NCBI RefSeq assembly: GCF_044324785.1
Contig: NZ_CP172127.1
DNA length: 64,000 nucleotides
Source: Escherichia coli
Lineage (GTDB): Bacteria > Pseudomonadota > Gammaproteobacteria > Enterobacterales > Enterobacteriaceae
Direction: 5' to 3' (one strand)
Part shown: positions 2,202 to 43,253 of the stretch, one piece after another
Layout of the letters: every line of letters begins with the position of its first letter
Position numbering within the stretch: the stretch's first letter is position 1
The notes under the pieces: generated by a model
The model's input: only the letters and a program-made list of their open reading frames with translations
What the model was told of the DNA's origin: nothing
Databases searched by the model: none
Position numbers and translations under genes: made by a program

Positions 2202-2426
2202 ATGTTAAGACATATTGACCGCATTACCTGGCGTAACGGCTGGCACCTGAATGGACGCCCGGCACATGTTGCAGAGATCCGCCCCATATTCGATGGCCGC
2301 GTCGCAGCTGCACGTTCTGTATGGGAAAAGTACGAAGAAGAAAAAGCGAAACTGCGTGAGCAAAATCTCTCTGGCGCTGCCTATGAGGCTGGCTGTCGCG
2401 TTCTCTCAGAGGCTTTGGGCATATGA
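2202..2426 (+). CDS. Hypothetical phage protein (74 aa)
   Basis: ORF with GAGGAAAG RBS supplied by a conserved 40-bp junction sequence. Stop overlaps the next start (ATGA). Confidence 0.55.
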   Translation: MLRHIDRITWRNGWHLNGRPAHVAEIRPIFDGRVAAARSVWEKYEEEKAKLREQNLSGAAYEAGCRVLSEALGI

Positions 2427-3190
2427 ACATCCTCCCGTTACTTGATAGACCCATAGCCTTCCAGAGAAGTTTTATCCGTCTTGAAATTGGCGTGACTGCC
2501 GCATTGTTTCTGTCGCAGTTGACGTACTGGACAAACAGAACAACTGACGACGGCTGGGTGTATAAAACCCAGGATGAGTGGGAAGAGGAAACAGGGCTTT
2601 CACGATACGAGCAGGAGGGCGCCCGCAAAAAACTACGTGGTCTCGGCGTCTTGCTGGAACGTAAACAGGGCTTGCCTGCCAGGCTGTACTACAAAATCGA
2701 TAATGATGTGTTGTGCCAGCTACTTACGTCCGCATACAAGGATGCGGAAAAACCACATACAGGTGAGGGGAAAACCACCAGGCCTGTACGTGGAAAACCA
2801 ACAAACATTCTTACAGAGAATACAACAGAGATTACTACAGAGATTATTACTGATGGTGAATCGGCTGACGCCGACACCCAACAACCTGCCGACCAGAGAA
2901 TAAATTATCAGGTGATACTCGATACCTATCACGAGATTTTGCCAGAGATGCCACCAGTGAAAATCCTCACTGACGGCAGAAAAAAACACCTTCGCACTTT
3001 CTGGAAAAAATTCAATTTCAATGAGTCCCGTTGGCGGGCCTATCTGGAATTTATCGGTGGCAATTGTCGCTGGATGCTGGAGGACAGGCCAAATGGCAGG
3101 GGAGGATTCTGGCGGCGTAAAAATCTTGATTATCTGATTACCGAACGCTGCTACGTTTCGGTTAAGGAAGAACGCGCAAATGATAAATAA
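2423..3190 (+). CDS. Replication initiator, lambda O-like position (N-terminal winged-helix-like region, internal iterons)
   Basis: Sits directly upstream of, and overlaps, the DnaB-like helicase gene. Contains three 12-bp direct repeats mid-gene, as in ori-within-O arrangements. Family assignment by context only. Confidence 0.6.
   Translation: MNILPLLDRPIAFQRSFIRLEIGVTAALFLSQLTYWTNRTTDDGWVYKTQDEWEEETGLSRYEQEGARKKLRGLGVLLERKQGLPARLYYKIDNDVLCQLLTSAYKDAEKPHTGEGKTTRPVRGKPTNILTENTTEITTEIITDGESADADTQQPADQRINYQVILDTYHEILPEMPPVKILTDGRKKHLRTFWKKFNFNESRWRAYLEFIGGNCRWMLEDRPNGRGGFWRRKNLDYLITERCYVSVKEERANDK
2813..2848 (+). repeat. 3 x 12-bp direct repeats ACAGAGAWTAYW (candidate ori iterons)
   Basis: acagagaataca / acagagattact / acagagattatt at 2813, 2825 and 2837. 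They encode TENTTEITTEII. Confidence 0.45.
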
Positions 3191-4595
3191 CGCGATTGCA
3201 CTGTACAGCGTTGACGCAGAACAGGCTGTTCTGGGCTGTCTGATGCTGAATACCGACCACGACAGAACCAATGCGGTATTTGCGTTACTGAAACCGGAAA
3301 CGTTTTATATCAATGCGCATCAGGTTATCTACCGGGAGATCAAAGGATTATTTCAAGCTGATAAACCAACTGACCTGATAACACTGACCGAACTGATGGA
3401 ATCGAAGGGGCTGTATGAGCGCGTGGGGGGATTCGCATACCTGGCTGAAATGAGTAAGGCGGCGATACCGGCCTCAATGGTCAACTACGCGAAAATTGTA
3501 CGTGAAAAAGCCATTCTTCGTTACGCCGTGGAAAAGTTGAATTCTTGTCTGGAGATTATGACCCAGCCTGCAGATATGACTGCTACTGACAGGATCAGCA
3601 CCGTTCAGCAAGTGATTGGACAGGTAGCTGAACATGCCCGTACCGGGCATAAGGGCGGTTTGCGTCCGGCAAGTGAAGTCGTCGATGACTGGATAGATGA
3701 CCTTGATCGCCGTTTCAATGATCCAGCACATGCAGCCGGACTAACGCTCGGAATCGAAAGCCTTGATCGCTTAATGGCACCAAAGCAGGCGTTAAGAGGC
3801 TCATTGGTCGTTATTGGTGCCCGGCCAAAAATGGGCAAGACAGCCGCGTTTAATAAAATTGCGGTGCATTTTGCTCTGAATCATCGTTTGCCGACGCTGG
3901 TATTTAGCCTGGAAATGACTGACAGAAGTCTCATTGAACGCATGGTTGCGCAGGAAGCAAAGGTCAATTCGGAGATTTTTTATCTTGGCCCTAACGATGA
4001 ATCTGAATTGAGTCTCGCAATAGCAAAGGCGGGGGAGATTGCCGAATCCAACATGATGATTGACAGCACGGCAGGCGTAACCCTTGCGCATATTGTCGCT
4101 GAATGCCGAAAGGTTAAGCGGATGCATGGCTCGGTTGGCCTGGTGGCAATTGACTATTTGACGCTGATGAAAACCGAAGCGGCAGAACGTCGGGATATTG
4201 CGTATGGCGATATCACAACCGGTTTGAAGAACCTGGCAAAAGAGCTGGATTGTGTTGTGGTCCTGCTGACGCAACTCAACCGAAAACTTGAAGAACGAGC
4301 AGATAAGCGGCCTAACCCGAGCGACAGTAAAGATACCGGGCAGATCGAACAAGATTGCGATGTCTGGATTGGCCTCTATCGTGATGCTGTTTATAACGAA
4401 AATGCCGACCCAAATCTCATGGAAATGTTGCTACGTCTGAACCGCGAAGGACCATCGGGAACAGCCTACGCCCTGATGAAAAATGGCTCAGTTATTGATA
4501 TCAGCGATGAGGAGGTTTATCGCCGTACCAACTACCGCTCAGAAAAAAATAAACGTTATTCCCGTAGCGATAATTCTCGCACAAATGAATTTTAA
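3180..4595 (+). CDS. Replicative DNA helicase, DnaB family
   Basis: 471 aa. N-terminal AEQAVLGCLM motif, Walker A GARPKMGKT, and the IDYLTLM and LLTQLNR motifs typical of DnaB. Confidence 0.9.
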   Translation: MINNAIALYSVDAEQAVLGCLMLNTDHDRTNAVFALLKPETFYINAHQVIYREIKGLFQADKPTDLITLTELMESKGLYERVGGFAYLAEMSKAAIPASMVNYAKIVREKAILRYAVEKLNSCLEIMTQPADMTATDRISTVQQVIGQVAEHARTGHKGGLRPASEVVDDWIDDLDRRFNDPAHAAGLTLGIESLDRLMAPKQALRGSLVVIGARPKMGKTAAFNKIAVHFALNHRLPTLVFSLEMTDRSLIERMVAQEAKVNSEIFYLGPNDESELSLAIAKAGEIAESNMMIDSTAGVTLAHIVAECRKVKRMHGSVGLVAIDYLTLMKTEAAERRDIAYGDITTGLKNLAKELDCVVVLLTQLNRKLEERADKRPNPSDSKDTGQIEQDCDVWIGLYRDAVYNENADPNLMEMLLRLNREGPSGTAYALMKNGSVIDISDEEVYRRTNYRSEKNKRYSRSDNSRTNEF

Positions 4596-4633
4596 CCACG
4601 CCTGACCAGCGTGAAATAACCGAGGAAAGACCA

Positions 4634-5044
4634 ATGACCACCACTCCAGGCAAATTAGAGTACCCGTCGGACAAAGGACACATAGACGACGGTAAAAACT
4701 ATCTCGACGTCATTTTGTGGAATATGAACGTCGGGCCACGTGCGCGCACTCGCGCGGTTTTTGTGCCAAGACCTAAAGCAGGCAATTTTTCAACCCCTGC
4801 TAAGCCTGCCCGTCAGGCATCCGTAGCCGCAGCGCCAGCAGTGAAACGTAAGGGCAAAACGCACACCGGGATCGCGATTCGCAGAAATGGTGAGCGGCAA
4901 GTAAAACTCCACGAAACAGCGACAACCTGGTGTGCTTCACCGCATGAAACTTACGACAAGATAACCGGGCAGCGCATTGGTGCGCCTGGTCGCTGTCGCC
5001 TGCTGTTGAGTTCCATCACTCCGATAGCAAAGAAAGGGGCGTGA
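4634..5044 (+). CDS. Hypothetical phage protein (136 aa, basic)
   Basis: ORF preceded by the second copy of the conserved junction/RBS sequence. Confidence 0.5.
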   Translation: MTTTPGKLEYPSDKGHIDDGKNYLDVILWNMNVGPRARTRAVFVPRPKAGNFSTPAKPARQASVAAAPAVKRKGKTHTGIAIRRNGERQVKLHETATTWCASPHETYDKITGQRIGAPGRCRLLLSSITPIAKKGA

Positions 5045-5045
5045 T

Positions 5046-5282
5046 ATGGCCGGGCAATCAGATTACCTGCCGCCCGGCTTACCACACAACCGCGCCAAAT
5101 GGCCCCAGGAATACCAGCTTAAAGAGCACTACGACATGCGAGCGGCGACGCTGATCCGCCAACTCTTTGAGAAACGTATTCCGAGGGGAAGCGTGATTGA
5201 GCAAATCGGAATGACGCCGGATACGTACCGGGAATTTTTCAGAGAGCGTCTGAACTACTGGAGAGGGGTGATGGAGCAATGA
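5046..5282 (+). CDS. Hypothetical phage protein (78 aa)
   Basis: ORF packed 1 nt after the previous stop; its stop overlaps the next start. Confidence 0.5.
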   Translation: MAGQSDYLPPGLPHNRAKWPQEYQLKEHYDMRAATLIRQLFEKRIPRGSVIEQIGMTPDTYREFFRERLNYWRGVMEQ

Positions 5283-5590
5283 AATACAAACGGTGGGTGC
5301 GTGCGGAAGTCGTAATCATCAAACAATGTGCGGGCAGCATGACAGTTGAACGTATAGGGCAGCTTATTGGAAGAACCGGTGCAGCGGTACGCACAAAAGC
5401 GCGCGAGCTGAAAATCTGTATGTATCTGCGGGGTAATTATCACCAGTCAGCAAAATACTGCCAGGAGGATATCGAGCTGGCAAGGGAATTACATCAGTCG
5501 GGTATTAATCGCCAGGATATCGCAGAAAAACTCGAAATGCCGATCGGAGCGGTGAATCAGTTTGTTTATTTTGAGCGGAGGATTTCATGA
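5279..5590 (+). CDS. Putative DNA-binding protein with two HTH-like repeats (103 aa)
   Basis: Two helix-turn-helix-like segments (TVERIGQLIGRTGAAVRTKAREL and NRQDIAEKLEMPIGAVNQFVY). Translationally coupled on both sides. Confidence 0.5.
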   Translation: MKYKRWVRAEVVIIKQCAGSMTVERIGQLIGRTGAAVRTKARELKICMYLRGNYHQSAKYCQEDIELARELHQSGINRQDIAEKLEMPIGAVNQFVYFERRIS

Positions 5591-7447: not shown

Positions 7448-8371
7448 TTATTGGTTTCTGAGGAAAGCGATTCTTGAAAGGGTCATTTGCGTCTGGCAGT
7501 CGACCATTTTCTTGACTTCAGCATCTGTTCCCTGCATTGAAACTTTACCGCACATAGCATCCTTAGTTTTGATCCACTGACGCTGAGAAGGCAGCAAATC
7601 TTTTTTCTTCGCCGGGGTTAACTTGCTCCAGACGGTACTCAAATCAGAGTCGGCATTCGCAAATGCCATTCGGGACTGATCAAGGCTGTCAGCTTTTTGT
7701 GGCTGAAGTTGTGCCTGTCTCTCTATTTGCTTCTCCGCCTCATACTTAGCCTGTTCCTGCGCCCTGAGTTGCACCTGTTGTTCCGCTTCAATTTGGCTCT
7801 GTTGGGCATCCTTAGCCTGCTGGATTTTCTGCTGCTCAACGATCGGGTTGATAATAGAAAGTGATGTCAGTAAAGCGGCGCCCACTGATATCGGATTATC
7901 AGAAGAGGTTTTTACAAAAACGTTTTTCTGATCGTCGGTCGCCTGCACGGTGTAGGTGATACGTTTGGAAAAGGCGTTTGCGTTGTTCTCCAAAAACAGG
8001 CTTTCCATTTGCTTGTCGAGATTACGATTAAAATTCTTTCTGTAATCATCAGAAAGCTGGACGTATTCGTTCGCAGGTAGAGTCATCGTCACGGTCCCTT
8101 CACAAGTTTTCATTGTGCTGCCCGTGTCACTTGATGTTGTGGAGATTTCAGAGATGGCTAGTTTGATCTTGTCCAATGTGCTTCGTTTGGTCTGATTAGT
8201 GACATCAGGGTATTTATCGACCTGTTCAGAGAGTCCTTCATAAGCAGATTTTTTTAATAAATCCATAAGCGCTGACTGGGTTATTTCCGAAGAACAACCG
8301 ATCACATCTTTTTTGTTATCACAGCCTGTAAGGGCAATGGCGAGTAAGAGTACTGAGTATTTTAATCTCAT
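7448..8371 (-). CDS. Lipoprotein with Q-rich coiled-coil and C-terminal DUF1311/LprI-like domain
   Basis: Signal peptide plus lipobox LLLAIALTGC. Central EQQKIQQAKDAQQSQIEAEQQVQLRAQEQAKYEAEKQIERQAQ. C-terminal QRQWIKTKDAMCG...VDCQTQMTLSRIAFL resembles DUF1311. Opposite strand to the phage early genes. Confidence 0.75.
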   Translation of the reverse strand: MRLKYSVLLLAIALTGCDNKKDVIGCSSEITQSALMDLLKKSAYEGLSEQVDKYPDVTNQTKRSTLDKIKLAISEISTTSSDTGSTMKTCEGTVTMTLPANEYVQLSDDYRKNFNRNLDKQMESLFLENNANAFSKRITYTVQATDDQKNVFVKTSSDNPISVGAALLTSLSIINPIVEQQKIQQAKDAQQSQIEAEQQVQLRAQEQAKYEAEKQIERQAQLQPQKADSLDQSRMAFANADSDLSTVWSKLTPAKKKDLLPSQRQWIKTKDAMCGKVSMQGTDAEVKKMVDCQTQMTLSRIAFLRNQ

Positions 8372-8996
8372 GAATTCCCTTTAGAGTAAGGATTGGTTTT
8401 TAAGACGCGGTCTGTAATCAGTTCCGAGAGCTACAGTAAACAACGCTGAGCACTGAACGCATCACAGGCAAGGTAAAGGCGATATCGGCAAAGGCTGTGA
8501 AACCTTTAATTCAACAGATGGAAACGGTATGCGCAGGATCCTGTAACGACGCTCCCAAAACCGGAAACCTGTAAGGCATGTTTTCGCTGCTGAACTTAAT
8601 ATACGAACCTGCACTATCATGAACATATTTTATATCGTTATACCCCGAGTGATTGTGCCCGGCAATGGATAGTGTCCTGGAGGAACTATTTCTACTGTAA
8701 AAGGTAGACATTTAATTTCAGTGTGGAATTATTCCCTGCTGTTAATAACCATGGCTCTATATGGCACCGAGCGGACTAGTTAACTTGCCTGAAAGCCGCT
8801 ATGAGTGAGGAGCGAATATTGGCACGAGAGGATACCTGAACCATTTTTTGGACATGCGCTAAAAGCGAATGATTAGTTTTATCGGAATATTTACAGTATA
8901 CTTACAAGGCAAGCTTGGCGTGCCGTCTTGGGCGAGATTGCTTAAATTATTTTGTGGATATATCATTCAAACAAAAGATAATAAAATGAGGTTGTT

Positions 8997-9194
8997 ATGT
9001 CATATATTCGCGTAGAGAAAGATGGCCTTCAGTATGAAGCAGAATACTTCCGTAAAGAGGATATGGTCACAGTCTTTGGGGTTAGAGGAGGGCATTCCAG
9101 CGTGGTTCTAAATGGAATGACAGAAGTCGCGGCTGCTCGTACTGCGTTACGAAATCTTATTAGAGAAAATCAGGTTGATCCTCTAACTGATTAA
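8997..9194 (+). CDS. Hypothetical small protein (65 aa)
   Basis: ORF in AT-rich DNA with GAGG 7 nt upstream of the ATG. Confidence 0.45.
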   Translation: MSYIRVEKDGLQYEAEYFRKEDMVTVFGVRGGHSSVVLNGMTEVAAARTALRNLIRENQVDPLTD

Positions 9195-9398
9195 AAATAA
9201 GCCATCTTAACTGAGAGCATATTTTGATATAATTTAGATTAAATCTATTTTGAAGGTTAGTTTGGGATGAGAAGATTACATCAAAACCGTTATTACTAGC
9301 AATAAGTTGTGTAAATCAAATAATACATAATCATGTGGTAACATATACTAAGCGTAGTAAAGTTTTTATATATTCCTGTAACTTTGTGAGAAACTTCC

Positions 9399-10064
9399 AT
9401 GAAAGCCGACAACTTAAGAATTATAGAGAATGGCAAATATGTTTTCGATATGTTCTTGGATACTGGTGAATTTTACTATACAAGTCATGCCTTTGACACG
9501 AGAGAAGATGCAAAAAGCTGGATGGAAGAATGGCAGATTTGGGCAAATAATGTATCGAGTGGGAAAGTAAGTAGTATTTATTATATTTTACAAGTGCCTG
9601 ATACTTGGGCCGGTTCTTCAGATAAAAATAACCCTTACTCGGGACTTTATGTGAAAATAGGGCGTTCCAATAATGTGCTAAAAAGGTTGTCTAACCTGCA
9701 GACAGGTGCATTTGGTCAATTAATATTACACGCTTTGGAACCTGGTGGTTCAGAAAAAGAAAACTATCTTCATGAAAAATTTAGCAACGAAAGACGTCAA
9801 GGTGAATGGTTTGTTTGTACTAAGGAACTTACCAAGCATATATTTACAACATGGTTTAAAAACAAAATGCTCCCACCAGAACATCAAATAAAAATAATGC
9901 AGCTCGCAGAAAGAATAGGTATTTATTCGCATGTTCATACACTAATGGGGGGGAAGCCAGACTTAGTAAACCCATCTATTAGTGAACCTTGGGAATGCGA
10001 AAAATATGTTTTGGTTGATATGATTTATAGCTCTTTAGCAAAGCAAGTTAATCATAAAAAATAA
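9399..10064 (+). CDS. T5orf172 (GIY-YIG-superfamily) domain protein with YegP/DUF1508-like N-terminus
   Basis: Core YVKIGRSNNVLKRLSNLQTGAFGQLILHALEP...ENYLHEKFSNERRQGEWF fits the T5orf172 pattern (KIG.S.N...RL..LQTG...E..LH..F...R..GEWF). The N-terminal YVFDMFLDTGEFYYTSHAFDTREDAKSWMEEW resembles YegP repeats. Confidence 0.75.
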   Translation: MKADNLRIIENGKYVFDMFLDTGEFYYTSHAFDTREDAKSWMEEWQIWANNVSSGKVSSIYYILQVPDTWAGSSDKNNPYSGLYVKIGRSNNVLKRLSNLQTGAFGQLILHALEPGGSEKENYLHEKFSNERRQGEWFVCTKELTKHIFTTWFKNKMLPPEHQIKIMQLAERIGIYSHVHTLMGGKPDLVNPSISEPWECEKYVLVDMIYSSLAKQVNHKK

Positions 10065-10384
10065 AGTGTTACATTTTAACCATACAATTATTGATTCACT
10101 AATGAAGAGGTGATTTAAACGTATGAAGTTTTAATAAGCTCCAAGAATATTTTGTCATACATGGGTTAAAGAGTTATATAATAATATCTGCTTCTGGAAT
10201 ACAGCAGACAAGCACCTGCAGATAAAGGTCTGCTGAGAGCGAGAAGCGGATCATACGTTGGAAGTTGTTTAGGCAAATACGTTATAAACGTATTTGATTA
10301 AATTTACTTGGATCATAGTCTTCAATAACGCTTTATTATATTGTTTTTCATGCAGCAAACAGGTTTACAGGTAGGTAATAAGCT

Positions 10385-10789
10385 ATGAGTGGATGGAAAG
10401 AGTCTTTTACATTAGCAGAACAGATACAATTAGCATTAAATTTAGGTTATGAGGCTGTACCAGATGAAGAGGCATATACTGGGGCATACTTCATTAAAGG
10501 TGGTAAGAAGTGGATCTTTAACATCATCGGTCTCAAAAAGACATTGAATATATCTTCAGATGATGAACTAAGAGGGCAGGATTATGATGTTGATATGTAT
10601 TTCGAAATTCGCCAAAATTGGGCACAATACCAAGATATGATCTTTGGAAGCGAAGATATCACTCCTTCACCTAAAAATGAACTTACTTCAATTTACCATG
10701 ACCTGCAGGTAACGGATGAACCCAGGGAAATGGTGTATCTTTCTGATGGGATGTGGCTGGATCCCAACGGACGAATTGTACAACGATAG
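10385..10789 (+). CDS. Hypothetical acidic protein (134 aa)
   Basis: ORF with AGGTAGG upstream. D/E-rich. No recognisable motif. Confidence 0.5.
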   Translation: MSGWKESFTLAEQIQLALNLGYEAVPDEEAYTGAYFIKGGKKWIFNIIGLKKTLNISSDDELRGQDYDVDMYFEIRQNWAQYQDMIFGSEDITPSPKNELTSIYHDLQVTDEPREMVYLSDGMWLDPNGRIVQR

Positions 10790-10898
10790 CACTCGAACAC
10801 ACTCAGTAATCGTCTATAAGGCCAGCACTTGTTACTTGGTCATTTGGGGTTGCTGGTCTTCTCCATTAAATCGACTAAAGTCTGTTCCATAGAGAGAG

Positions 10899-11504
10899 TT
10901 ACTTGCGTTTAAAAAGGTATTTTGTCACGACCAGCACGAGGCCGAATACCTCTGTCAAAGTACCGCCCATGTACAACTGGAGCGTTAAGTCTTTAAATAC
11001 AAGCCATTCAGCACCAGTGGCAAAAAATACACCATTCATTATCAAAAGCTGGCAAGCAAGGATAATAAGGAACCATTTGCCATAGCGTTTTTTTAGATCG
11101 ATTTCAGCTTCAAAATCTTTGTTGTTGAGTTGTTTGCGCTCATGCTCAGTATCAAGTGAATTCACCTGTTTCACAGATGTGAACTCGGTCAAGATTTTAC
11201 TCTCAGTACGGGTGACTTGTTGAGAGGGGGTAGGAATTGGAATTCTTTTGATTGACGCAGCTACAGCCATTTTGCGAGCTTCGGCAGCTCTTTTTCTGGC
11301 TATTCCGTGAATACGGGCAGACGGTTTTTTTGGAGCATGCGAAACCTTTGTCTGAGGTGAAGTTTCGTCAGGAGACTGAACCGGAGTTTCATCCTCCTCC
11401 GGCTCAACCTCTTCTGCTAACTGACGGTGTAGGTTGAGGGAATCCTTCAGTCGGCGTGCAACTTCCTGTTTGAAACGGCTGTTAAAATCGTCATCCGATG
11501 GCAT
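10899..11504 (-). CDS. Orphan membrane protein: ~140-aa charged/Pro-rich N-terminal region plus two C-terminal TM helices
   Basis: Start is 9 nt after the ImmA-like stop. Hydrophobic segments WFLIILACQLLIMNGVFFATGA and LTEVFGLVLVVTKYLF. The N-terminal part is low-complexity with a K/R patch (KKPSARIHGIARKRAAEARK). Confidence 0.7.
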   Translation of the reverse strand: MPSDDDFNSRFKQEVARRLKDSLNLHRQLAEEVEPEEDETPVQSPDETSPQTKVSHAPKKPSARIHGIARKRAAEARKMAVAASIKRIPIPTPSQQVTRTESKILTEFTSVKQVNSLDTEHERKQLNNKDFEAEIDLKKRYGKWFLIILACQLLIMNGVFFATGAEWLVFKDLTLQLYMGGTLTEVFGLVLVVTKYLFKRK

Positions 11505-11513
11505 TCTAAAGCG

Positions 11514-12002
11514 TTACCCCAACCTCAAGTTCTTTAAACGATAAGTCATCGCATCGTCAGATACGCCAAAATGATGCGCCATTATATAACTTGGTTGGCC
11601 GTCAGCGTGCAGTTTTCTGACCTCATCTACCGGCATCAGAAGTTCTGCTGCGAACTTGTTCGCAAAAATTTCATCAGGATGCGTTCCGGCGCTTGCGGTT
11701 TCGCCACGTAAATCAACGTACTCATATTCATCGCTATGCGATGCTTGCCGGGCGATGTAATGCCCCAACTCATGCCCACATGAAAAACGTTGACGAACTT
11801 TGTTGTCATCACTGTTTAGAAAGATCGCTGGATCTTGATCTTTTTGTTTAATCAGTGCGCCAGAAACTTTCCCAGGAAGATCGGTAATAAAAACATCTAA
11901 TCCCATGTCGTGAGCAATTTTCGCTGGATCAACAGGGAAACCACGCCCGCACCAGAACGTGTCCAGCACTCGCCGGGCGTGCTCTCTTGGGTTGGTAGCC
12001 AT
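11514..12002 (-). CDS. ImmA/IrrE-family (M78, DUF955) zinc metallopeptidase
   Basis: HEXXH as SCGHELGHYI, plus the downstream family motif DEIFANKFAAELLMP. GGAGG 7 nt upstream of the ATG. Confidence 0.85.
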   Translation of the reverse strand: MATNPREHARRVLDTFWCGRGFPVDPAKIAHDMGLDVFITDLPGKVSGALIKQKDQDPAIFLNSDDNKVRQRFSCGHELGHYIARQASHSDEYEYVDLRGETASAGTHPDEIFANKFAAELLMPVDEVRKLHADGQPSYIMAHHFGVSDDAMTYRLKNLRLG

Positions 12003-14613: not shown

Positions 14614-14903
14614 AAAAAATCGACCTGAGAAAAGCTGCACGCGGTCGCGCTTGTACTGTGCGTATCCCCGGTGTGTGCAATCACAATCCTGAAACCAGTG
14701 TACTGGCTCACTACCACCTCGCCGGAACATGCGGAACAGCAATCAAACCACACGATATGCAGGGCGCTATCGCCTGCAGTGCGTGTCACGATGCTATCGA
14801 CGGACGTACAAAAACAGATTACGAGCGTGATTCCTTATTACTGATGCACACAGAGGGCGTTTTAAGGACGTTGGCCATCTGGCGTAACGAGGGATTCATC
14901 TGA
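14610..14903 (+). CDS. YbcO-like protein (DUF1364, putative nuclease)
   Basis: DLRKAARGRACTVRIPGVCNHNPETSVLAH...ACSACHDAIDGR closely parallels DLP12 YbcO. Confidence 0.8.
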   Translation: MKKIDLRKAARGRACTVRIPGVCNHNPETSVLAHYHLAGTCGTAIKPHDMQGAIACSACHDAIDGRTKTDYERDSLLLMHTEGVLRTLAIWRNEGFI

Positions 14904-15574
14904 TGAGTAACGAGTATTTGTTGGAATATACCCGCATAAAACTGCGCGCTGCATTGCGGGATTTGTCTGGTGGTTCTAAGGGGCAGCTGGAAGCATTGTG
15001 TGAGCACCCGCCGGCAGACAAAAACGCATATCCACGCAAACATATTCATCGTGTGCAACTGGAGGACCGGACCGTTGATGCTCTGGTTACGCCAGTTTAC
15101 GCCCTGGAAAGTTTCAGCAGACGTCGTCCCGCGCCGCCGATGAATGATTTTGAATTCGCTGATTCATCGTGGCGCCGCGCCGTGAATTCGCTCGACGTTA
15201 GCCAGCAGGCGTGGTTGCGCTATTGCTACGGTGGTCACCTGGCGTTCAAACACCAAACAGCTATTTGTGAGGCTGTCTGGAGTCGCTATAAAGGACACAT
15301 CCCCGCGTCAACTCAGAGAAAAGTAGCTAAGCGCCTGCTTTCGTTGGTGTGGTTGTCCGTGCAGGCGGTTGCAGCAGCAAATAAACGCGAGGATTTTAAG
15401 GAGATGGCTGGATCTGCGCTAGCTGGAATGTTGTCTGTTTCTCGTTCCACCTGGTGCGAAACATACTCCCCGCACTGGGTAGGAATGAAAGAGGCGGTGA
15501 GAGCACTTGATGAAATGGCACTTCTTGCAACTTTGCATCATTATCAAAACCATTTAGACGACGTTTGCGTATAA
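14903..15574 (+). CDS. Late-gene antiterminator Q (phage 21/933W type)
   Basis: Motifs DLSGGSKGQLEA, SSWRRAVNSL..QAWLRYCYG, LVWLSVQAV and W.ETYSPHW. Followed by a promoter/terminator leader and then lysis genes. Confidence 0.85.
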   Translation: MSNEYLLEYTRIKLRAALRDLSGGSKGQLEALCEHPPADKNAYPRKHIHRVQLEDRTVDALVTPVYALESFSRRRPAPPMNDFEFADSSWRRAVNSLDVSQQAWLRYCYGGHLAFKHQTAICEAVWSRYKGHIPASTQRKVAKRLLSLVWLSVQAVAAANKREDFKEMAGSALAGMLSVSRSTWCETYSPHWVGMKEAVRALDEMALLATLHHYQNHLDDVCV

Positions 15575-15610
15575 TGCTTGCAAAACCGAACAAAACAGGC
15601 CATATTAAAC
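15565..15610 (+). promoter_or_regulatory. Candidate late promoter (PR-prime) region
   Basis: TTGCAA (15578-15583), 17 nt, CATATT (15601-15606). A perfect TATAAT also occurs at 15570-15575. The exact start site is not resolvable by eye. Confidence 0.4.
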
Positions 15611-15642
15611 GCTAATTTGGTATGTTGCCAAATTTCTAAGAA

Positions 15643-15669
15643 CCTCGCCACGGCGGGGTTTTGTCGTTT
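15643..15669 (+). terminator. tR-prime-like intrinsic terminator between the late promoter and the lysis genes
   Basis: cctcgcc-ac-ggcgggg followed by ttttgtcgttt. Confidence 0.7.
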
Positions 15670-15686
15670 CTGAATCAGGAAAAATC

Positions 15687-15844
15687 ATGTCTGAACCTCT
15701 AACCGCTGGCGTTGCTGCTGGCTCGGCGGGGGTGACGTTTGCTGCGTTATTTCCTGAGGCAACACCTGCAGTGATGATCTGTGCGCTGGCAGGCGCAGCT
15801 CTCTATGTGTTGTCGTCCGGGCAGCATCGATTCTGGAAGCAGGT
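15687..15844 (+). pseudogene. Holin-like gene, 5-prime part (52 codons), interrupted by IS2
   Basis: [52 protein letters not shown] then IS2. The frame continues at 17181 once IS2 and one copy of CAGGT are removed. Confidence 0.8.
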
Positions 15845-15935
15845 TAGACTGGCCCCCTGAATCTCCAGACAACCAATATCACTTAAATAAGTGATAGTCT
15901 TAATACTAGTTTTTAGACTAGTCATTGGAGAGCAG

Positions 15936-16301
15936 ATGATTGATGTCTTAGGACCGGAGAAACGCAGACGGCGTACTACACAGGAAAAGATCGCTATTGT
16001 TCAGCAGAGTTTTGAACCGGGAATGACGGTCTCCCTTGTTGCCCGGCAACACGGTGTGGCAGCCAGCCAGTTATTTCTCTGGCGCAAGCAATACCAGGAG
16101 GGAAGTCTTACTGCTGTGGCCGCAGGAGAGCAGGTCGTTCCTGCCTCTGAACTTGCTGCTGCCATGAAGCAGATTAAAGAACTCCAGCGCCTGCTCGGCA
16201 AAAAAACGATGGAAAATGAACTCCTTAAAGAAGCCGTTGAATACGGGCGTGCAAAAAAGTGGATAGCGCACGCGCCCTTATTGCCCGGGGATGGGGAGTA
16301 A
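15936..16301 (+). CDS. insC: IS2 transposase OrfA (InsC)
   Basis: [56 protein letters not shown]..., recognised as IS2 InsC. Confidence 0.95.
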
Positions 16302-17164
16302 GCTTAGTCAGCCGTTGTCTCCGGGTGTCGCGTGCGCAGTTGCACGTAATTCTCAGACGAACCGATGACTGGAAAGATGGTCGCCGCAGCCGTCACTCAG
16401 ATGATACGGATGTGCTTCTCCGTATACACCATGTTATCGGAGAGCTGCCCACGTATGGTTATCGTCGGGTATGGGCGCTGCTTCGCAGACAGGCCGAACT
16501 TGATGGTATGCCTGCGATCAATGCCAAACGTGTTTACCGGATCATGCGCCAGAATGCGCTGTTGCTTGAGCGAAAAACCGCTGTACCGCCATCGAAACGG
16601 GCACATACTGGCAAAGTGGCCGTGAAAGAAAGCAATCAACGATGGTGCTCTGACGGGTTCGAGTTCCGCTGTGATAACGGAGAAAAACTGCGAGTCACGT
16701 TCGCGCTGGACTGCTGTGACCGTGAGGCACTGCACTGGGCAGTCACTACGGGCGGCTTCGACAGTGAAACAGTACAGGACGTAATGCTGGGAGCGGTGGA
16801 ACGCCGCTTCGGCAACGAGCTTCCGGCGTCTCCAGTAGAGTGGCTGACGGATAATGGTTCATGCTACCGGGCTAATGAAACACGGCAGTTTGCCCGGATG
16901 TTGGGGCTTGAACCGAAGAACACGGCGGTGCGGAGTCCGGAGAGTAACGGCATAGCAGAGAGCTTCGTGAAAACGATAAAGCGTGACTACATCAGTATCA
17001 TGCCTAAACCAGACGGGTTAACGGCAGCAAAGAACCTTGCAGAGGCGTTCGAGCATTATAACGAATGGCATCCGCATAGTGCACTGGGTTATCGCTCGCC
17101 ACGGGAATATCTGCGGCAGCAGGCCAGTAATGGGTTAAGTGATAACAGGTGTCTGGAAATATAG
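16259..17164 (+). CDS. insD: IS2 transposase OrfB (InsD; made as an InsCD fusion by -1 frameshift)
   Basis: 301-aa [33 protein letters not shown]... with a DDE region. Overlaps insC in the -1 frame at AAAAAAG. Confidence 0.95.
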
Positions 17165-17180
17165 GGGCAAATCCACAGGT

Positions 17181-17406
17181 TATTTTCGCACTCATTTCGT
17201 TTGTTGGCGGTGTGTATTGCGCTGAGACAGCATCAGCCATCATTACCGGTATTCTGAACGCGGTGCTGAGTCACCTGAACCCTCCCGTAACAGTAAAAGT
17301 CTCTCCCGCCATTGGTGCACTGGTTGCATCAGTAATCAGCGTTACATCACTGTTGCGGATCATGTCACAAGCTCGTTTATGGAAATCAGATAAGGGGATG
17401 AAATAA
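17181..17406 (+). pseudogene. Holin-like gene, 3-prime part (74 codons)
   Basis: ...VIFALISFVGGVYCAETASAIITGILNAVLSHLNPPVTVKVSPAIGALVASVISVTSLLRIMSQARLWKSDKGMK. Hydrophobic helices and a charged C-terminus. The reconstructed gene would be 127 aa. Confidence 0.75.
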
Positions 17407-17678
17407 TGACCCTGCACTCTGTCCTCATTAATGCCAATGCAATTATCTGTCTGATGCTGGCACTGCGGTTGATGTTTTTTCAAAAAACAGGCCGCTATCG
17501 TTTTTTCATCTCACTAACTGCTTACCTGGCGATTCTGTCTGCTGCGTGGATAGCCCTACGAATTTTTTATGGGAAATATACGCAGGTTGATCCCGCAGAG
17601 TTCTTTCTCAACCTCACCATCTGTATTGCTGTCTGGCGGGCACGAGGGAATATTTCAAAAATAACAGGAGACAGGTAA
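17406..17678 (+). CDS. Three-TM small membrane protein (holin/antiholin-like)
   Basis: 90 aa with three hydrophobic segments. ATGA-type coupling between the holin-like gene and the endolysin gene. Confidence 0.6.
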   Translation: MTLHSVLINANAIICLMLALRLMFFQKTGRYRFFISLTAYLAILSAAWIALRIFYGKYTQVDPAEFFLNLTICIAVWRARGNISKITGDR

Positions 17679-18160
17679 TGACGGATCCTAAATGGCTAAT
17701 TGAGGCTCGAAAAAACCTCGGCATTCGGGAAATGAAAGGGAAGCAACATGCTGCAGAAATTGTGCAGTACTGGAAAGATATCAAACGCGGCGGCATTAAG
17801 GATGACGAAACACCGTGGTGCTCCGCCTTCACAGGAGCAATGCTGGAACGTGCAGGTATTCGCTCAACGCGTTTTGAGTCTGCGAATTCTTATCTCGATT
17901 GGGGTAATGAACTGAAGGAACCCGCCTATGGATGCATTGCTATTCTGTCTCGGTCTGGCGGTGGTCACGTCGGCTTTGTTGTCGGGAAAAATGCCGCCGG
18001 GGATTTAATGATTTTGGGGGGCAACCAGGCAGATGAAGTAAATATCAAAGCTTTTCCGAGCTCACGAGTTACCGGCTATCGCTGGCCTGTTGATGTGCTG
18101 GATGTGCCGTCAACCTTGCCGCTGCTGATGGGAGGTGAATTATCAACTTCGGAGCAGTAA
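17678..18160 (+). CDS. Endolysin, NlpC/P60-CHAP-like cysteine peptidase (TIGR02594-type)
   Basis: PKWLIEARKNLGIREMKG...DDETPWCSAF...GGHVGFVVG...ILGGNQADEVN...GYRWP follows the TIGR02594 phage peptidase pattern. Lysis-cassette position. Confidence 0.8.
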   Translation: MTDPKWLIEARKNLGIREMKGKQHAAEIVQYWKDIKRGGIKDDETPWCSAFTGAMLERAGIRSTRFESANSYLDWGNELKEPAYGCIAILSRSGGGHVGFVVGKNAAGDLMILGGNQADEVNIKAFPSSRVTGYRWPVDVLDVPSTLPLLMGGELSTSEQ

Positions 18161-18162
18161 CC

Positions 18163-18354
18163 ATGAAAAAGTTCTTTCTACTGGCAGCGTTGGTGCTTGC
18201 GGGTTGCTCAAACACGACGTACACGGAAGCAACGCATCCCAACGGCACGACCGTAAAGCACATTTCTATCGCACCGGGTACGAAGATCACAACCGCAAGT
18301 GGTGGCTGTATCGACTCTGCCGGGGCTGCGGCTTCATGCCCATTGGATCAATGA
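18163..18354 (+). CDS. Small lipoprotein (63 aa), possible o-spanin
   Basis: MKKFFLLAALVLAGC lipobox, immediately after the endolysin gene. No i-spanin partner ORF recognised. Confidence 0.5.
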   Translation: MKKFFLLAALVLAGCSNTTYTEATHPNGTTVKHISIAPGTKITTASGGCIDSAGAAASCPLDQ

Positions 18355-18553
18355 GGGTAATTGGCATAGGCAATTTAACCGTATAAGTGCGCCTTCACCG
18401 GCTTCCTGCAAATAAGTGCATTTCGTAATTTATAAAGTTCTAAGAAGCAAGTCCATAAGCTTAACATTACAGCACAAACGATCTGTTTTTAGTTCTATGG
18501 GTGTTCTCTTTTTTCGGGAATATATTTTAGTAACCAGAATTAAATTCTAAAAG

Positions 18554-18577
18554 GCCTCGCAACTGCGGGGCTTTTTT
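18554..18577 (+). terminator. Intrinsic terminator after the lysis cassette
   Basis: gcctcgc-aact-gcggggc followed by tttttt. Confidence 0.8.
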
Positions 18578-18730
18578 ATATCCGTATTTCGCTGCGCACC
18601 GCATGCGCATATCAACCACCGAACCAAACCCTTTGGAATGAGCCGTTGAGGATGTCAGTTAGTGCTGGCGAGCCTCGGTGGGCTGACTTCCTATGCGGCA
18701 ACGGTTCATCTCAAAGAGTAGGTACACGCT

Positions 18731-19228
18731 ATGAAATCATTAACCCTCTTCAATCAACCAATCCGCGTCGGGGATGATGGCATGATCTGCCTCACCGACA
18801 TGTGGAAAGCCAGCGGCAAAAGTGACGCTGAATCGCCGTACCACTATCTGCGAAACAAGCAGACCAAAGAGTTCCTTGTCGAGCTGGAGAAAAACCACGA
18901 ATCTGTGGTTTTCACTGCCCGCGGCGTACACGGCGGAACCTATGGCGGGAAGTTTGTTGCTTACGATTATGCGGCTTGGTTAAACCCAGGGTTCAAGTAT
19001 GCAGCCTATAAAGTACTCGATGACTACTTCACCGGAGAGCTTCGGCATCGTAATAGCTTAAGTGCGCAGCTCAACATGAAGTGTTATGAGTTTGACCAGA
19101 AGAAAGACATGGCGAGCTTCTGTGGGCAAGGACTCGCGGCATGGCGTTATACAAAGCCTGTGCTGATCGCTGAGATGAACACCTTGGCAAACCAACTGCA
19201 GATTACGCTCCCTGGACTTCCTGGATGA
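18731..19228 (+). CDS. KilA-N domain protein
   Basis: ICLTDMWKASGK...KQTKEFLVELEK...GGTYGGKFVAYDYAAWLNPGF fits the KilA-N pattern. Confidence 0.75.
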   Translation: MKSLTLFNQPIRVGDDGMICLTDMWKASGKSDAESPYHYLRNKQTKEFLVELEKNHESVVFTARGVHGGTYGGKFVAYDYAAWLNPGFKYAAYKVLDDYFTGELRHRNSLSAQLNMKCYEFDQKKDMASFCGQGLAAWRYTKPVLIAEMNTLANQLQITLPGLPG

Positions 19229-19467
19229 GTAATCGCGTCATCGAATGCGCCTCCAGAGCGGGGCGTGACTTCTCAGAGTTCATGAAAGGCGAGAAGGGTA
19301 TGGAGGACGCGCTGTCCTCGGTGAATCAGTTTGGCGAGCAGATTCGACTCAACGGCTGCGTCAATCATCACTTTGTCAGTTACATGATGCGTAACGCGAT
19401 CATGCAGGCATTCATGGACATGGCAAGCACTGAGAAAAAAGAAGAGCGCCGACGTAAACGAGCGTAA
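19225..19467 (+). CDS. Hypothetical protein (80 aa)
   Basis: ORF overlapping the KilA-N stop (ATGA); basic C-terminal tail. Confidence 0.5.
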   Translation: MSNRVIECASRAGRDFSEFMKGEKGMEDALSSVNQFGEQIRLNGCVNHHFVSYMMRNAIMQAFMDMASTEKKEERRRKRA

Positions 19468-19617
19468 GCAAAAGCTGAGTAGTCATTCCAAAGCTCATCC
19501 CCGGGCGGGCTTGATAATGGATAGTCATCACAGATTTAAAATGTGGCAATGAAGTCTCTTTAATAAGCCAATTCTTAGCATTATTCTGACCTCTCCAATT
19601 GAAAAGGAGGTTGAGTA

Positions 19618-19809
19618 ATGTCAGATGAAATCCGTCGCTGTAAAATCGTCAGTATGTATGAACAACCCGAGGGAACGTTCATTAAGTTCGCTCCAGTGAA
19701 ATTCTATGACGAAGGCAACAACCCTCATGTCGGCGAGCAAGCAATCGTAGAGATGGATAACGGCAAAGTGATTACCGTAAACCCGGGTGAGATTCACTTT
19801 ATTAAATAG
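19618..19809 (+). CDS. Hypothetical small protein (63 aa)
   Basis: Strong RBS AAGGAGG and its own terminator. Confidence 0.6.
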   Translation: MSDEIRRCKIVSMYEQPEGTFIKFAPVKFYDEGNNPHVGEQAIVEMDNGKVITVNPGEIHFIK

Positions 19810-19830
19810 TGACAAAACTGATTGTGATGA

Positions 19831-19852
19831 AACCCACTGCGGTGGGTTTTTT
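19831..19852 (+). terminator. Intrinsic terminator
   Basis: aacccac-tgcg-gtgggtt followed by ttttt. Confidence 0.8.
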
Positions 19853-19883
19853 ATTGCCATCACCATGGGCAGACCCATCGTAA

Positions 19884-19913
19884 TGGCAAAAGCAGGGCGA
19901 GGTTATCGCCCTG
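19884..19913 (-). terminator. Intrinsic terminator for the minus-strand two-gene unit
   Basis: Minus strand cagggcga-taacc-tcgccctg followed by cttttgcc. Confidence 0.6.
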
Positions 19914-19917
19914 TGTC

Positions 19918-20187
19918 TTAACCGCGTGCCTCACGACCCTCCTCGTCCTCAGGTACACGATATCGCCAGTATTTGTCCGGCCTAACCCAAACAACATCCC
20001 CGCCGCTATCAACTCTGAACTTATTTATGACTTTTGTTGAAAGTGCTTGGTTGCCGTCTGCATTTTCCTTCAAATGTTGCTCATTACCAACTTTGACCAA
20101 ATAATCAACGACGTCCTGCTGGTATAAGCATCCATCTTTTTGCAGTGCAGATAACATCCAATTTGATACATCTGCAACATCTAACAC
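19918..20187 (-). CDS. Hypothetical protein (89 aa), partner of the DUF2158 gene
   Basis: ORF 14 nt downstream of the DUF2158 gene on the minus strand, followed by a terminator. Confidence 0.55.
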   Translation of the reverse strand: MLDVADVSNWMLSALQKDGCLYQQDVVDYLVKVGNEQHLKENADGNQALSTKVINKFRVDSGGDVVWVRPDKYWRYRVPEDEEGREARG

Positions 20188-20201
20188 AGTGGTTGATTGG
20201 G

Positions 20202-20420
20202 TTATGGCTTTGGGATGAATTTATCTAACGACTCTTCTGGGAAATTACCACTGTCTAATTTCCTTCCTGCAAACCATTGGCAACGGTAGTTACCATTGAA
20301 GGTATCCGATAAGGTAGTAAGTGGTTTTTCAACAGTCATTGCTGGGCCACCTGATTTCAATACGACTAGCTCCCCTTTATTAAATTTTGCAACTGGAGTT
20401 TGTGAAGGTGCTTTAGCCAT
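20202..20420 (-). CDS. DUF2158 (YodC-like) small protein
   Basis: FNKGELVVLKSGGPAMTV...YRCQWFAG parallels host YodC (VTVKEGGPRMIV...VECRWYDG, 57562-57744). AAGGA RBS. Confidence 0.7.
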   Translation of the reverse strand: MAKAPSQTPVAKFNKGELVVLKSGGPAMTVEKPLTTLSDTFNGNYRCQWFAGRKLDSGNFPEESLDKFIPKP

Positions 20421-20527
20421 TTTATGTCCTTAAAAGTTAGTGATATGACAATGATTAGATGGCGACAATAGGTATAAATTTCAATAATAACAACTTGACT
20501 TAGCTCACAAAATTTAAAGGAAATCTT

Positions 20528-20653
20528 ATGGCAAAACCGGACTGGGGAGCACTGCAACACCAGTTCCTCGCCGTCCATGCCAAAACGGGTATATCACCGA
20601 AAGAATGGTGTGACGCGTAGGGACTGAGCTTCGCAACAGCCGCCGACGTATAA
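20528..20653 (+). pseudogene. N-terminal remnant of a small-terminase-like gene (in-frame stops)
   Basis: MAKPDWGALQHQFLAVHAKTGISPKEWCDA*GLSFATAADV* resembles the HTH N-terminus of some phage small terminase subunits. Broken after 30 codons; no downstream continuation. Confidence 0.4.
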
Positions 20654-33167: not shown

Positions 33168-34284
33168 AAATAAAATTTACGCAGTACTGACAGACCGTGG
33201 CGCACAACTCGAGGCCGCTGCCCTGGCGTCAGGCGTTCCAGTGGTGCTGAACAAATTTGTTATCGGTGACGCGAACGGAAACGACGATGTAACACCAGAC
33301 CCTGCACGAACAGCATTAATTCACGAGACGTATCGCGGTGATATTAAATCGTCAGAAAATAGCGGTAATCAGGTTATTTTTACGCTATACGTACCACCGG
33401 AAACCGGCGGCTATACTATCCGCGAAGTGGGAATACTGACAGATAAAGGTGAACTGTACTCTGTAGCGCGTTCGCCGGATATTTTAAAACCCACGGACAG
33501 TAACGGCGCGCTGATTTCAATCACGTATAAATACACTCTCGCGGTGTCCAGCACCTCTACAGTTAATGTTGTAGTATATGACAACTACGTAACTCCCGAA
33601 GCAGCTGACAAAAAATATTTGCAGATAAGTAAAAACTTATCTGAAATTTCCGCAAATGGTGAAACTGCTCAGCAGGCTGCGCGGAAAAATATTGGTATAG
33701 ATGGGGATGTTGCATATAGAGATAAGAGTAATACATTTACAACTCAAAACACTTTCAAAGACGATGTTTTTTTTGAAGATATTTTGATTTCTAAAAAACA
33801 AATAAATATAAATAAACCAGATACCAACTTGACATTATTTTCGCTTGCGGGCTGGTCAGATGTGAGCGGTGATTATTTAGAAGTGTCGACGCGGGGGGGA
33901 AATAATCAAAACGTTTTTTATAGATTACGCGGAATTCACTATGACGGCCTGGTGTTACTGTGCGGCGGGCAGACGTATAAATATTGGAATGAGGGAAATC
34001 TTAAACCGGTTAAAACGATTAACGGGAAGTCCCCAGACGCTAACGGGAACGTCGCAATAACAGTAAGTAGCTCAGGGATACAGAACGTCCAGCTTGGCGC
34101 AGAGGTTGCTCACACACCGGCGAGTAATGAGGTTACGTGGGACTTTAAATGTCCGACCGGCTGTGTTCTTACTGGGATATATGTTCAGGAAACCGGCGAC
34201 AGCTCAGCTGATAATATCGGCGGTGTTTATTATAAACCGATCCAAAAATACATTAATAATGTATGGACTACGATTTCCGGATGA
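33160..34284 (+). CDS. Tail fibre protein (P2 gpH-like N-terminus)
   Basis: YAVLTDRGAQLEAAALASG..V.LNKFVIGDANG...IREVGILTDKGELYSV is the conserved gpH/tail-collar N-terminal domain. The C-terminal half is AT-rich and divergent. Confidence 0.8.
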   Translation: MAENKIYAVLTDRGAQLEAAALASGVPVVLNKFVIGDANGNDDVTPDPARTALIHETYRGDIKSSENSGNQVIFTLYVPPETGGYTIREVGILTDKGELYSVARSPDILKPTDSNGALISITYKYTLAVSSTSTVNVVVYDNYVTPEAADKKYLQISKNLSEISANGETAQQAARKNIGIDGDVAYRDKSNTFTTQNTFKDDVFFEDILISKKQININKPDTNLTLFSLAGWSDVSGDYLEVSTRGGNNQNVFYRLRGIHYDGLVLLCGGQTYKYWNEGNLKPVKTINGKSPDANGNVAITVSSSGIQNVQLGAEVAHTPASNEVTWDFKCPTGCVLTGIYVQETGDSSADNIGGVYYKPIQKYINNVWTTISG

Positions 34285-34287
34285 GTT

Positions 34288-34866
34288 ATGCAAAATTTAA
34301 AATCATTTAAGCTTGTAAAACCTAAAACGAAATTACTTAAACTTAGCGAGTCTGACGGACAAAATGTTTTGTATCTTCAGTCCGAAGACGGCCTGGATTG
34401 GTATGAATGCCAGTCACTGTATCGCGATGACACAGTAAAAATAATGTACGACAAAGAAAACATTATTCGATCAGTTGTTGATCGCCCGGTCCCGGAGCGA
34501 GGAAATACCTATTCTGTGAGCATGTTTTTCCCGATTGATATGAGTGTTACGGAGGTTGAGTTGAGCACATATCCTTCTGAGCTAACTCTCGACGGATCGT
34601 GGAAATTTGTTGACGGTGATGTATATCAAGATGAGCTCATTGTAAATGAGCGTATTTACAAAGAAAACTCCAAAAAAATTAATGAATTAGTCCGAGAGGC
34701 TCAGTCAGCAATTCTAAATTTACAAACGGCCATAGAGATTGATATTTCATCAGATGGTGATGAGGAAAAATTAATAGAATGGCGACGGTACCTGTGCGCG
34801 CTGAATAAAATAACAGCCACGGATCTGAGTCAGTCCCCACTTAACACGCCTTTACGACCAGCATAA
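34288..34866 (+). CDS. Tail fibre assembly chaperone (gpG/Tfa-like)
   Basis: 192-aa ORF directly after the fibre gene. C-terminal ...KLIEWRRYLCALNKI motif typical of Tfa proteins. Confidence 0.7.
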   Translation: MQNLKSFKLVKPKTKLLKLSESDGQNVLYLQSEDGLDWYECQSLYRDDTVKIMYDKENIIRSVVDRPVPERGNTYSVSMFFPIDMSVTEVELSTYPSELTLDGSWKFVDGDVYQDELIVNERIYKENSKKINELVREAQSAILNLQTAIEIDISSDGDEEKLIEWRRYLCALNKITATDLSQSPLNTPLRPA

Positions 34867-34878
34867 ATAGGGTACCTA

Positions 34879-43096: not shown

Positions 43097-43253
43097 CTGT
43101 GTTGGGTATGCGATTTTATTCGCATACCCCTTAGGGCAATTGACGATACTTCCAAATGACCATTATTTTACGTGTGGCCTCGATGTTGCGCACATGAGAG
43201 TTCTATATTCTTTCAAACAGGATTATCCCATTGATTTAATTATACTTTCGTAT

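Follow-up and report, generated by a model that had tools for sequence, protein, structure and literature searches.

Escherichia coli genome assembly GCF_044324785.1 carries, on contig NZ_CP172127.1, a prophage whose lysis region is interrupted by a copy of the insertion sequence (IS) IS2. Analyzing a 64,000-nucleotide stretch of this contig—hereafter the window, with positions counted from its first letter—we conclude that IS2 very probably inserted recently into, and inactivated, a gene of the putative holin family PF16931, with the late genes downstream of the element still being read and control of lysis disturbed. At the level of the gene itself, the insertion is a simple null mutation. 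IS2 is a familiar element and events of this sort have been described before; the insertion is genuine but commonplace, with little that is new about it.

The boundaries of the element were read directly from the sequence. Exactly 1331 bp (15845-17175, plus strand) lie between two copies of the pentanucleotide CAGGT (15840-15844 and 17176-17180; a duplication to which no strand is assigned), starting with TAGACTGG on the left and terminating with GGGGCAAATCCA on the right. At the left boundary, CAGGT runs into TAGACTGGCCCCCTGAATC, while at the right boundary ATATAGGGGCAAATCCA, ending at 17175, gives way to the second CAGGT. The T at 17181 coincides by chance with the first base of IS2, resulting in six matching bases per side; because the ends and the length are those of canonical IS2, we set the duplication at 5 bp. 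The element separates a 5' fragment (15687-15844, plus strand; codons 1-52 plus 2 nt) from a 3' fragment (17181-17406, plus strand; from the third base of codon 53 up to and including the stop), and joining the two yields a 384-nt open reading frame (ORF) of 127 codons. Its product showed 0 differences over 127 amino acids to WP_001294589.1, the ‘putative holin’ of E. coli RM10042, whose empty site reads TGGAAGCAGGTTATTTTCGC and contains CAGGT once only. The restored gene was likewise 100% identical at the nucleotide level to the intact gene of strain YZMc3-1. Taken separately, the 5' part was 100% identical to intact copies in many genomes, and the 3' part was 100% identical to an intact copy.

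To the extent that an earlier note on this DNA described the insertion itself, it was accurate: the coordinates and counts it gave for an intact 1331-bp IS2 with a CAGGT duplication were all correct, the element having full-length orfA and orfB and an A6G site, and removal of the IS together with one repeat indeed restores a 127-codon ORF, identical to the uninterrupted gene of E. coli prophages. The comparison with IS-free homologous prophages that the note had proposed returned a single CAGGT, an identical 127-residue protein, and a collinear late region.

When the locus was rebuilt without IS2 (1165 nt) and compared with 5,426 complete E. coli genomes, 443 contained it without a break; it was also present in one deposited phage genome, vB_EcoM-705R4. 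All 443 full-length copies were uninterrupted. In three of the 446 matching records, coverage of the gene stayed below 80%, and a single one of these was inspected, which proved to be a CRISPR spacer; no other interrupted copy of the gene was found among the 446 matches, two short ones of which were left uninspected. Annotations at the matching genomes read ‘bacteriophage antitermination protein Q | putative holin | phage holin family protein | TIGR02594 family protein’. Neither the left nor the right junction between IS2 and the holin gene occurred in any of the complete genomes, and the left junction was absent from GTDB species representatives, too. Several features point to a recent event: the two CAGGT copies match perfectly, identical copies of the IS exist elsewhere, the split gene shows zero substitutions against an intact allele, and the junction is found in no compared genome. 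A recent, strain-private insertion—as the earlier note had suspected regarding its age—is thus well supported by these sequence comparisons.

Judged by its nucleotide identity, the element is an IS2 isoform, and one that is itself widespread. The criterion usually applied in ISfinder practice is an identity of at least 95%, and the window's copy, aligned without gaps to IS2A of E. coli K-12 MG1655 along its entire 1331 bp, reached 95.7% (57 mismatches). End-to-end identity of 100% was seen with IS2 copies on numerous E. coli chromosomes and plasmids, and some IS2-like match was present in 4,899 of the 5,426 complete genomes; the window itself holds a single copy. The element shares with K-12 IS2A its length, its ends (TAGACTGG...CAAATCCA), inverted repeats of 42 and 41 bp, overlapping orfA and orfB genes with the A6G site, and flanking by a 5-bp duplication (ATTAC in K-12). 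OrfA is identical to K-12 InsC1, whereas OrfB differs from InsD1 at 11 of 301 amino acids.

The internal anatomy followed the published IS2 architecture, including the A6G window (PMC3299598). The orfA gene (InsC, 121 aa; 15936-16301, plus strand) matched NCBIfam NF006928, ‘IS2 repressor TnpA’, with 276 bits over positions 1-121 of 121, and orfB (InsD, 301 aa; 16259-17164, plus strand) matched NF006918, ‘IS2 transposase TnpB’, with 706 bits over positions 1-301 of 301. Pfam domains HTH_Tnp_1 and, in OrfB, rve (DDE) were detected in the IS2 proteins. The motif AAAAAAG of the programmed -1 frameshift window lies at 16253-16259 (plus strand). The left inverted repeat (IRL, 42 bp; 15845-15886) and the right inverted repeat (IRR, 41 bp; 17135-17175; both given on the plus strand) are imperfect, matching at 31 of 42 positions when the known 1-bp offset is taken into account, and alignment of the arms placed a 1-bp gap at position 9 of the left repeat, in line with the description in PMC3219604. 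The transposase genes point in the same direction as the late operon of the prophage.

We then considered what remains of the interrupted gene. The restored 127-aa protein matched Pfam PF16931 (Phage_holin_8, ‘putative phage holin’) with 44.4 bits against a cut-off of 26.4 bits, covering positions 1-107 of the 121-position model, and phrog_198, ‘holin’, with an E value of 2.7e-34. Hydropathy analysis revealed hydrophobic stretches at residues ~5-45 (two segments with PEATP between them), 51-70, and 89-115, and the protein ends in a basic C-terminal tail, RIMSQARLWKSDKGMK. Being small, with multiple transmembrane (TM) segments and a charged tail, and being encoded two genes upstream of a TIGR02594 endolysin, the protein has the features of the holin class. 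The insertion point falls directly past the basic loop HRFWKQ. In its present frame, the 5' fragment reaches a TGA at 15858-15860, 5 codons inside IS2, giving rise to a 57-aa product that ends in VRLAP and keeps the first two hydrophobic segments only. Translation of a C-terminal fragment from the GTG at 17149 is unlikely: there is no Shine-Dalgarno sequence upstream, and the C-terminal hydrophobic segments and the basic tail are cut off without a credible ribosome-binding site. With respect to annotation, ORF fragments 15687-15860 and 17149-17406 belong together as a single IS-disrupted gene. In a CRISPR array of E. coli ES6 (NZ_CM184335.1), one spacer is a 100% match to 34 nt of the lysis gene (17299-17332 in the window, within the 3' fragment), so that immunity against this prophage family has been gained by at least one E. 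coli.

The position of the gene within the prophage matters for the reach of the insertion. Upstream lies the gene for a Q antiterminator of 223 aa (14903-15574, plus strand; Pfam PF06323 Phage_antiter_Q, E 9e-39), 99.6% identical to the RM10042 Q and of a family which we take to be the phage-82 type of Q; it is preceded by a DUF1367 gene and a YbcO-like gene. A TATAAT that overlaps the Q stop codon (15570-15575, plus strand) is, from its position only, a candidate -10 element of a late, pR'-like promoter, and the consensus promoter scan made no call at this site, where a good -35 is lacking. About 65 nt further downstream, a tR'-like intrinsic terminator (15639-15672, plus strand) comprises a 10-bp GC-rich stem, a 4-nt loop, and a U-rich tail, and the minimum-free-energy fold contains it as well. 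From this hairpin it is 15 nt to the start of the split gene and ~173 bp to IS2. The earlier note's placement of the element close behind a tR'-like terminator, at the head of the late operon and in the first holin-family gene after the Q/late-terminator region, hence stands. The lysis and morphogenesis genes are all on the plus strand up to ~43.1 kb, and this order—Q gene, intrinsic terminator, then lysis and morphogenesis genes on one strand—is the layout of a lambdoid Q-dependent late operon, with the promoter presumed.

Directly downstream of the split gene lies an intact gene for a 90-aa PF05449 (DUF754) holin with three TM segments (17406-17678, plus strand; Pfam E 9e-19; phrog_217, ‘holin’). 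The split gene's stop codon and the ATG of the PF05449 gene share bases (TAATG), and an AAGGGG Shine-Dalgarno sequence is situated 8 nt upstream of this ATG. The next gene encodes the endolysin candidate of 160 aa (17678-18160, plus strand; NCBIfam TIGR02594, 137 bits), a CHAP-like peptidoglycan hydrolase for which the CHAP match itself was below threshold and which further matched the lysozyme part of phrog_1259. No signal, signal-arrest-release (SAR), or N-terminal hydrophobic segment was present in this protein.

In its most severe form, the consequence of this arrangement would be that the split gene is the holin and lysis is abolished, while termination within IS2 shuts off most of the ~27-kb late operon, so that virions are neither made nor released. 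We consider this combination rather unlikely. The databases do name the gene ‘holin’ (PF16931, phrog_198), it is the first gene past the late terminator, and an endolysin devoid of a signal or SAR segment depends on a hole-forming holin. IS2 also carries Rho-dependent terminators that silence the downstream operon in the galEP3 reporter (PMC3737525). In galEP3 (gal3), a textbook case of a polar IS2 mutation, the element was inserted at the head of the gal operon, and in the window, too, IS2 separates a promoter from the operon downstream; the promoter in the window, however, works with a Q antiterminator, and this should suppress polarity. A terminator scan found no intrinsic-terminator-like site on the plus strand inside IS2. 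Q-loaded RNA polymerase of lambdoid phages resists both intrinsic and Rho-dependent terminators, and Q-antiterminated polymerase would be expected to ignore those of the element. Polarity would thus be reduced because the polymerase is Q-modified, the plus strand lacks an intrinsic terminator, and the partner holin gene has its own AAGGGG Shine-Dalgarno sequence. IS2 polarity is a legitimate concern, but the Q-modified polymerase should largely read through. Accordingly, of the polarity over ~25 kb that the earlier note had envisaged, what stands is the presence of Rho-dependent terminators on IS2, and what is weakened is a silencing of the operon in the face of Q antitermination.

The lysis half of the same reading meets two further obstacles, namely the next gene, an intact one for a class-I-like 3-TM holin that has a Shine-Dalgarno sequence to itself, and the annotation of distant homologues of the split-gene product as putative antiholins (PMC3091744, PMC5247547). 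Specifically, KS5 gp35 and AP3 gp13 carry the label ‘putative antiholin’, with the DUF754/PF05449 gene as the holin (PMC3091744, PMC5247547, PMC5674055); these calls rest on gene order and predicted topology (PMC3091744, PMC5247547). Other annotators word the family as ‘holin or antiholin’, and in the literature searched, only in-silico annotations were returned for PF16931, PF05449, DUF754, TIGR02594, and the SPN1S holin genes. A known, separately encoded antiholin is LysA of P2, a 4-TM protein annotated as non-essential and as affecting lysis timing. It resembles the split-gene product in being a small multi-TM protein of a lysis cassette that stands beside a 3-TM class I holin, but it has no detectable sequence relation to PF16931, and lysA follows the endolysin gene in P2. 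Homology of the split gene to LysA was rejected (hhalign probability 0.5%).

Comparison across phages supports, at the level of sequence and gene order, the view that the split gene has been conserved together with its partner, a class-I-like 3-TM holin gene. Among 80 IMG/VR loci retrieved with the split-gene protein, 79 had a PF05449-type gene immediately downstream, the exception being a contig edge; conversely, a PF16931-type gene stood immediately upstream in 80 of 80 IMG/VR loci retrieved with the PF05449 protein. At least four endolysin types occurred behind the pair—TIGR02594, a 180-aa protein, a 209-aa protein, and a lysozyme with an N-terminal hydrophobic segment—with GH108-like, GH19-like, and SAR as candidate fold classes for the last three. 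Rz/Rz1-like genes usually came next after the endolysin in these loci. The Pfam pair precedes the endolysin in four unrelated lineages, represented by the lambdoid phage HK639, the Uetakevirus SPN1S, the N4-like phage Pollock, and the P2-like Burkholderia phage AP3.

The AP3 and KS5 cassettes illustrate how far this conservation extends. The split-gene profile aligned to AP3 gp13, the ‘putative antiholin’, with 97.8% hhalign probability, and the partner protein matched AP3 gp14, the ‘putative holin’, by BLASTP (E 9e-8). In KS5 and AP3, both Burkholderia P2-like phages, PF16931 is followed by PF05449 directly before the endolysin, as in the window, and both genes are homologous to those described here. 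In contrast, amino acid identities to the window's genes are ~36% and 30%, the endolysin there is a PG_binding_1 plus DUF3380 protein as opposed to TIGR02594, and Rz/Rz1 spanins occupy the place of the 63-aa lipoprotein gene found in the window; the roles there are predicted only. Tentatively, PF16931 and PF05449 might constitute an obligate two-protein lysis-timing module that spans lambdoid, epsilon15-like, N4-like, and P2-like phages.

Given this partnership, we infer that loss of the split gene would disturb lysis control. If the lost protein is an antiholin or another regulator, lysis may quite plausibly be mistimed while still occurring, since without an antiholin lysis would come earlier instead of failing. 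A blockage of lysis with trapped virions, as expected of an obligate two-component holin made up of both proteins, is conceivable but somewhat doubtful. The earlier note had proposed that lysis is abolished or crippled. A holin-family gene is indeed split, yet abolition is not established, considering the intact PF05449 holin gene with its own Shine-Dalgarno sequence and the antiholin annotation of the homologues.

Several considerations weigh against a mild outcome, or against certainty about its nature. On a read-through transcript, orfB would be mostly untranslated, and some polarity may therefore persist despite Q. The TAATG overlap suggests translational coupling between the two holin-module genes; since this coupling is lost by the insertion, expression of the partner holin could drop. 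A search of the literature returned no experiment on any member of the PF16931/PF05449 pair, and either protein may be the holin or the antiholin. Finally, the window does not reach the int/xis end, which bears on the overall competence of the prophage.

This last point leads to a different explanation altogether, in which the insertion was neutral since the prophage had already become defective outside the window, for example by loss of int/xis or of the attachment sites, IS2 having then hit DNA that could be spared. That the window begins inside the prophage, with the integrase end beyond it, leaves room for such damage, and prophages are common landing sites for IS elements in general. We nevertheless regard this explanation as improbable in light of the sister prophages. 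When compared with the IS-free prophage of RM10042, 24 of 24 other late genes were full length, and IS2 was the only visible lesion in the late region. Those early genes that the window includes form long open frames and follow the order of RM10042, except for a replaced replication module. The same cassette resides in the deposited phage genome vB_EcoM-705R4, and the split gene shows no decay besides the IS itself.

More broadly, the prophages of RM10042, YZMc3-1, and sequence type 131 (ST131) strains such as EC958, as well as phage vB_EcoM-705R4, share Q, the holin pair, and the endolysin with the window at 98-100% identity, along with a collinear late region; they differ from it in lacking IS2 and in mosaic replication-module, post-lysis, and tail-fibre regions. 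The lysis cassette is common in ST131 genomes, EC958 being one example. Relative to RM10042, the non-collinear segments are 2336-5587 (replication module), 18087-20589 (after the endolysin), and 33648-35800 (tail-fibre region and start of the sheath gene), and these three represent typical mosaicism. The tail-fibre gene, which belongs to such a mosaic region, aligns only partly with RM10042, and the sheath protein is 69% identical to its RM10042 counterpart.

A third explanation casts IS2 as a mobile promoter, with the -35 at its right end or read-through from the element's own promoter driving holin and endolysin independently of Q. Here, the outward-reading -35 was assigned to TGGAAA at 17154-17159 in the IRR by counting back from the end of IS2. 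In the IS2 minicircle, the left end supplies the -10 partner of this -35 at an obligatory spacing of 17 bp (PMC3219604), the element's promoters PIRL and Pjunc being described in PMC3299598 and PMC3219604, and IS2 fusion promoters are documented, for instance at ampC (PMC3219604, PMC9330008). Moreover, the right end faces the lysis genes in the prophage, with no terminator in between. No usable -10 was present at 16-18 bp, though: the 17-bp spacing gave AGGTTA, matching TATAAT at 0 of 6 positions, and the 16- and 18-bp spacings matched at 2 and 3 of 6 positions, respectively, without the key A at position 2. The promoter scan detected no promoter-like site across the right IS2 junction either. 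Considering, in addition, that constitutive holin and endolysin expression would be toxic and selected against, a mobile-promoter role appears extremely improbable. A separate promoter-like match lies at the end of the split gene (17380-17407, plus strand; TGGAAA, a 16-nt spacer, and AATAAT with an upstream TG); it is probably due to chance, because its transcription start would fall at or after the ATG of the partner holin gene.

Taken together, the evidence favors a recent null insertion with continued late transcription, and the course of events may be pictured as follows. Copy-out/paste-in transposition would have placed an intact IS2, in the orientation of the late operon, behind codon 53 of a 127-codon membrane-protein gene. 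The gene hit is the one that opens both a two-gene holin module and the Q-dependent late operon of a prophage with a lambdoid early region and a P2-like tail. Upon induction, Q-modified RNA polymerase would read through IS2, and the downstream late genes would be expressed, perhaps at a lower level. With the partner holin, the endolysin, and the 24 other late genes compared intact, the phenotype should be limited to lysis control, and excision should be unaffected. Excision relies on early int/xis functions and not on the late operon. For the same reason, the earlier note's proposal that the insertion locks the prophage into the chromosome found no support: excision does not need the late genes, which also speaks against the reading of abolished lysis and a silenced late operon, and a defect in lysis would stop release only.

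Beyond the endolysin gene, the window contains a gene for a predicted 63-aa lipoprotein (18163-18354, plus strand; taken from the ORF list) that starts with MKKFFLLAALVLAGC and includes the lipobox LAGC. It occupies the position where relatives have spanin genes and is 57-63% identical to proteins in sister prophages and related viral contigs. The lipoprotein had no Pfam, PHROG, or NCBIfam match, and no i-spanin-like ORF was evident near the endolysin and lipoprotein genes. About 3 kb beyond the lipoprotein gene follow terminase, portal, protease, capsid, and P2-type tail genes. An Rfam search returned no known RNA family around the insertion site. At 18420-18596 (plus strand), between the lipoprotein gene and a KilA-N/antirepressor-like gene (18731-19228), several sub-threshold Rfam matches pile up (Phe_leader with 34.8 bits against a threshold of 55, AbsR28, RsmY, and Leu_leader), probably reflecting just a structured, terminator-like region.

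A cluster of probably accessory genes occupies 7448-12002 in the early-right region of the prophage. It includes genes for a protein with an LprI-like lysozyme-inhibitor domain (7448-8371, minus strand), a GIY-YIG/T5orf172 protein (9399-10064, plus strand), and an ImmA/IrrE metallopeptidase (11514-12002, minus strand) with an unassigned 201-aa neighbor (10899-11504, minus strand); the RM10042 prophage has all of these genes as well. The right end of the prophage falls at ~43100-43260, and the chromosomal genes zinT, hprRS, and msrPQ follow from ~43.25 kb. Most E. coli genomes match this flank at 95-99% identity (99.3% at best), and strain JNE151685 carries another prophage in the same chromosomal site.

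As for its meaning, the case adds another example of IS-mediated prophage erosion, and the prophage is better flagged as a lysis-module mutant than as dead. Naming the gene hit ‘the holin’ is unsafe, given that the roles within this widely conserved pair are predicted only. By the same token, a natural IS2 knock-out of the PF16931 gene that leaves its partner intact would offer a ready-made test of whether members of this family act as antiholins or as essential co-holins.

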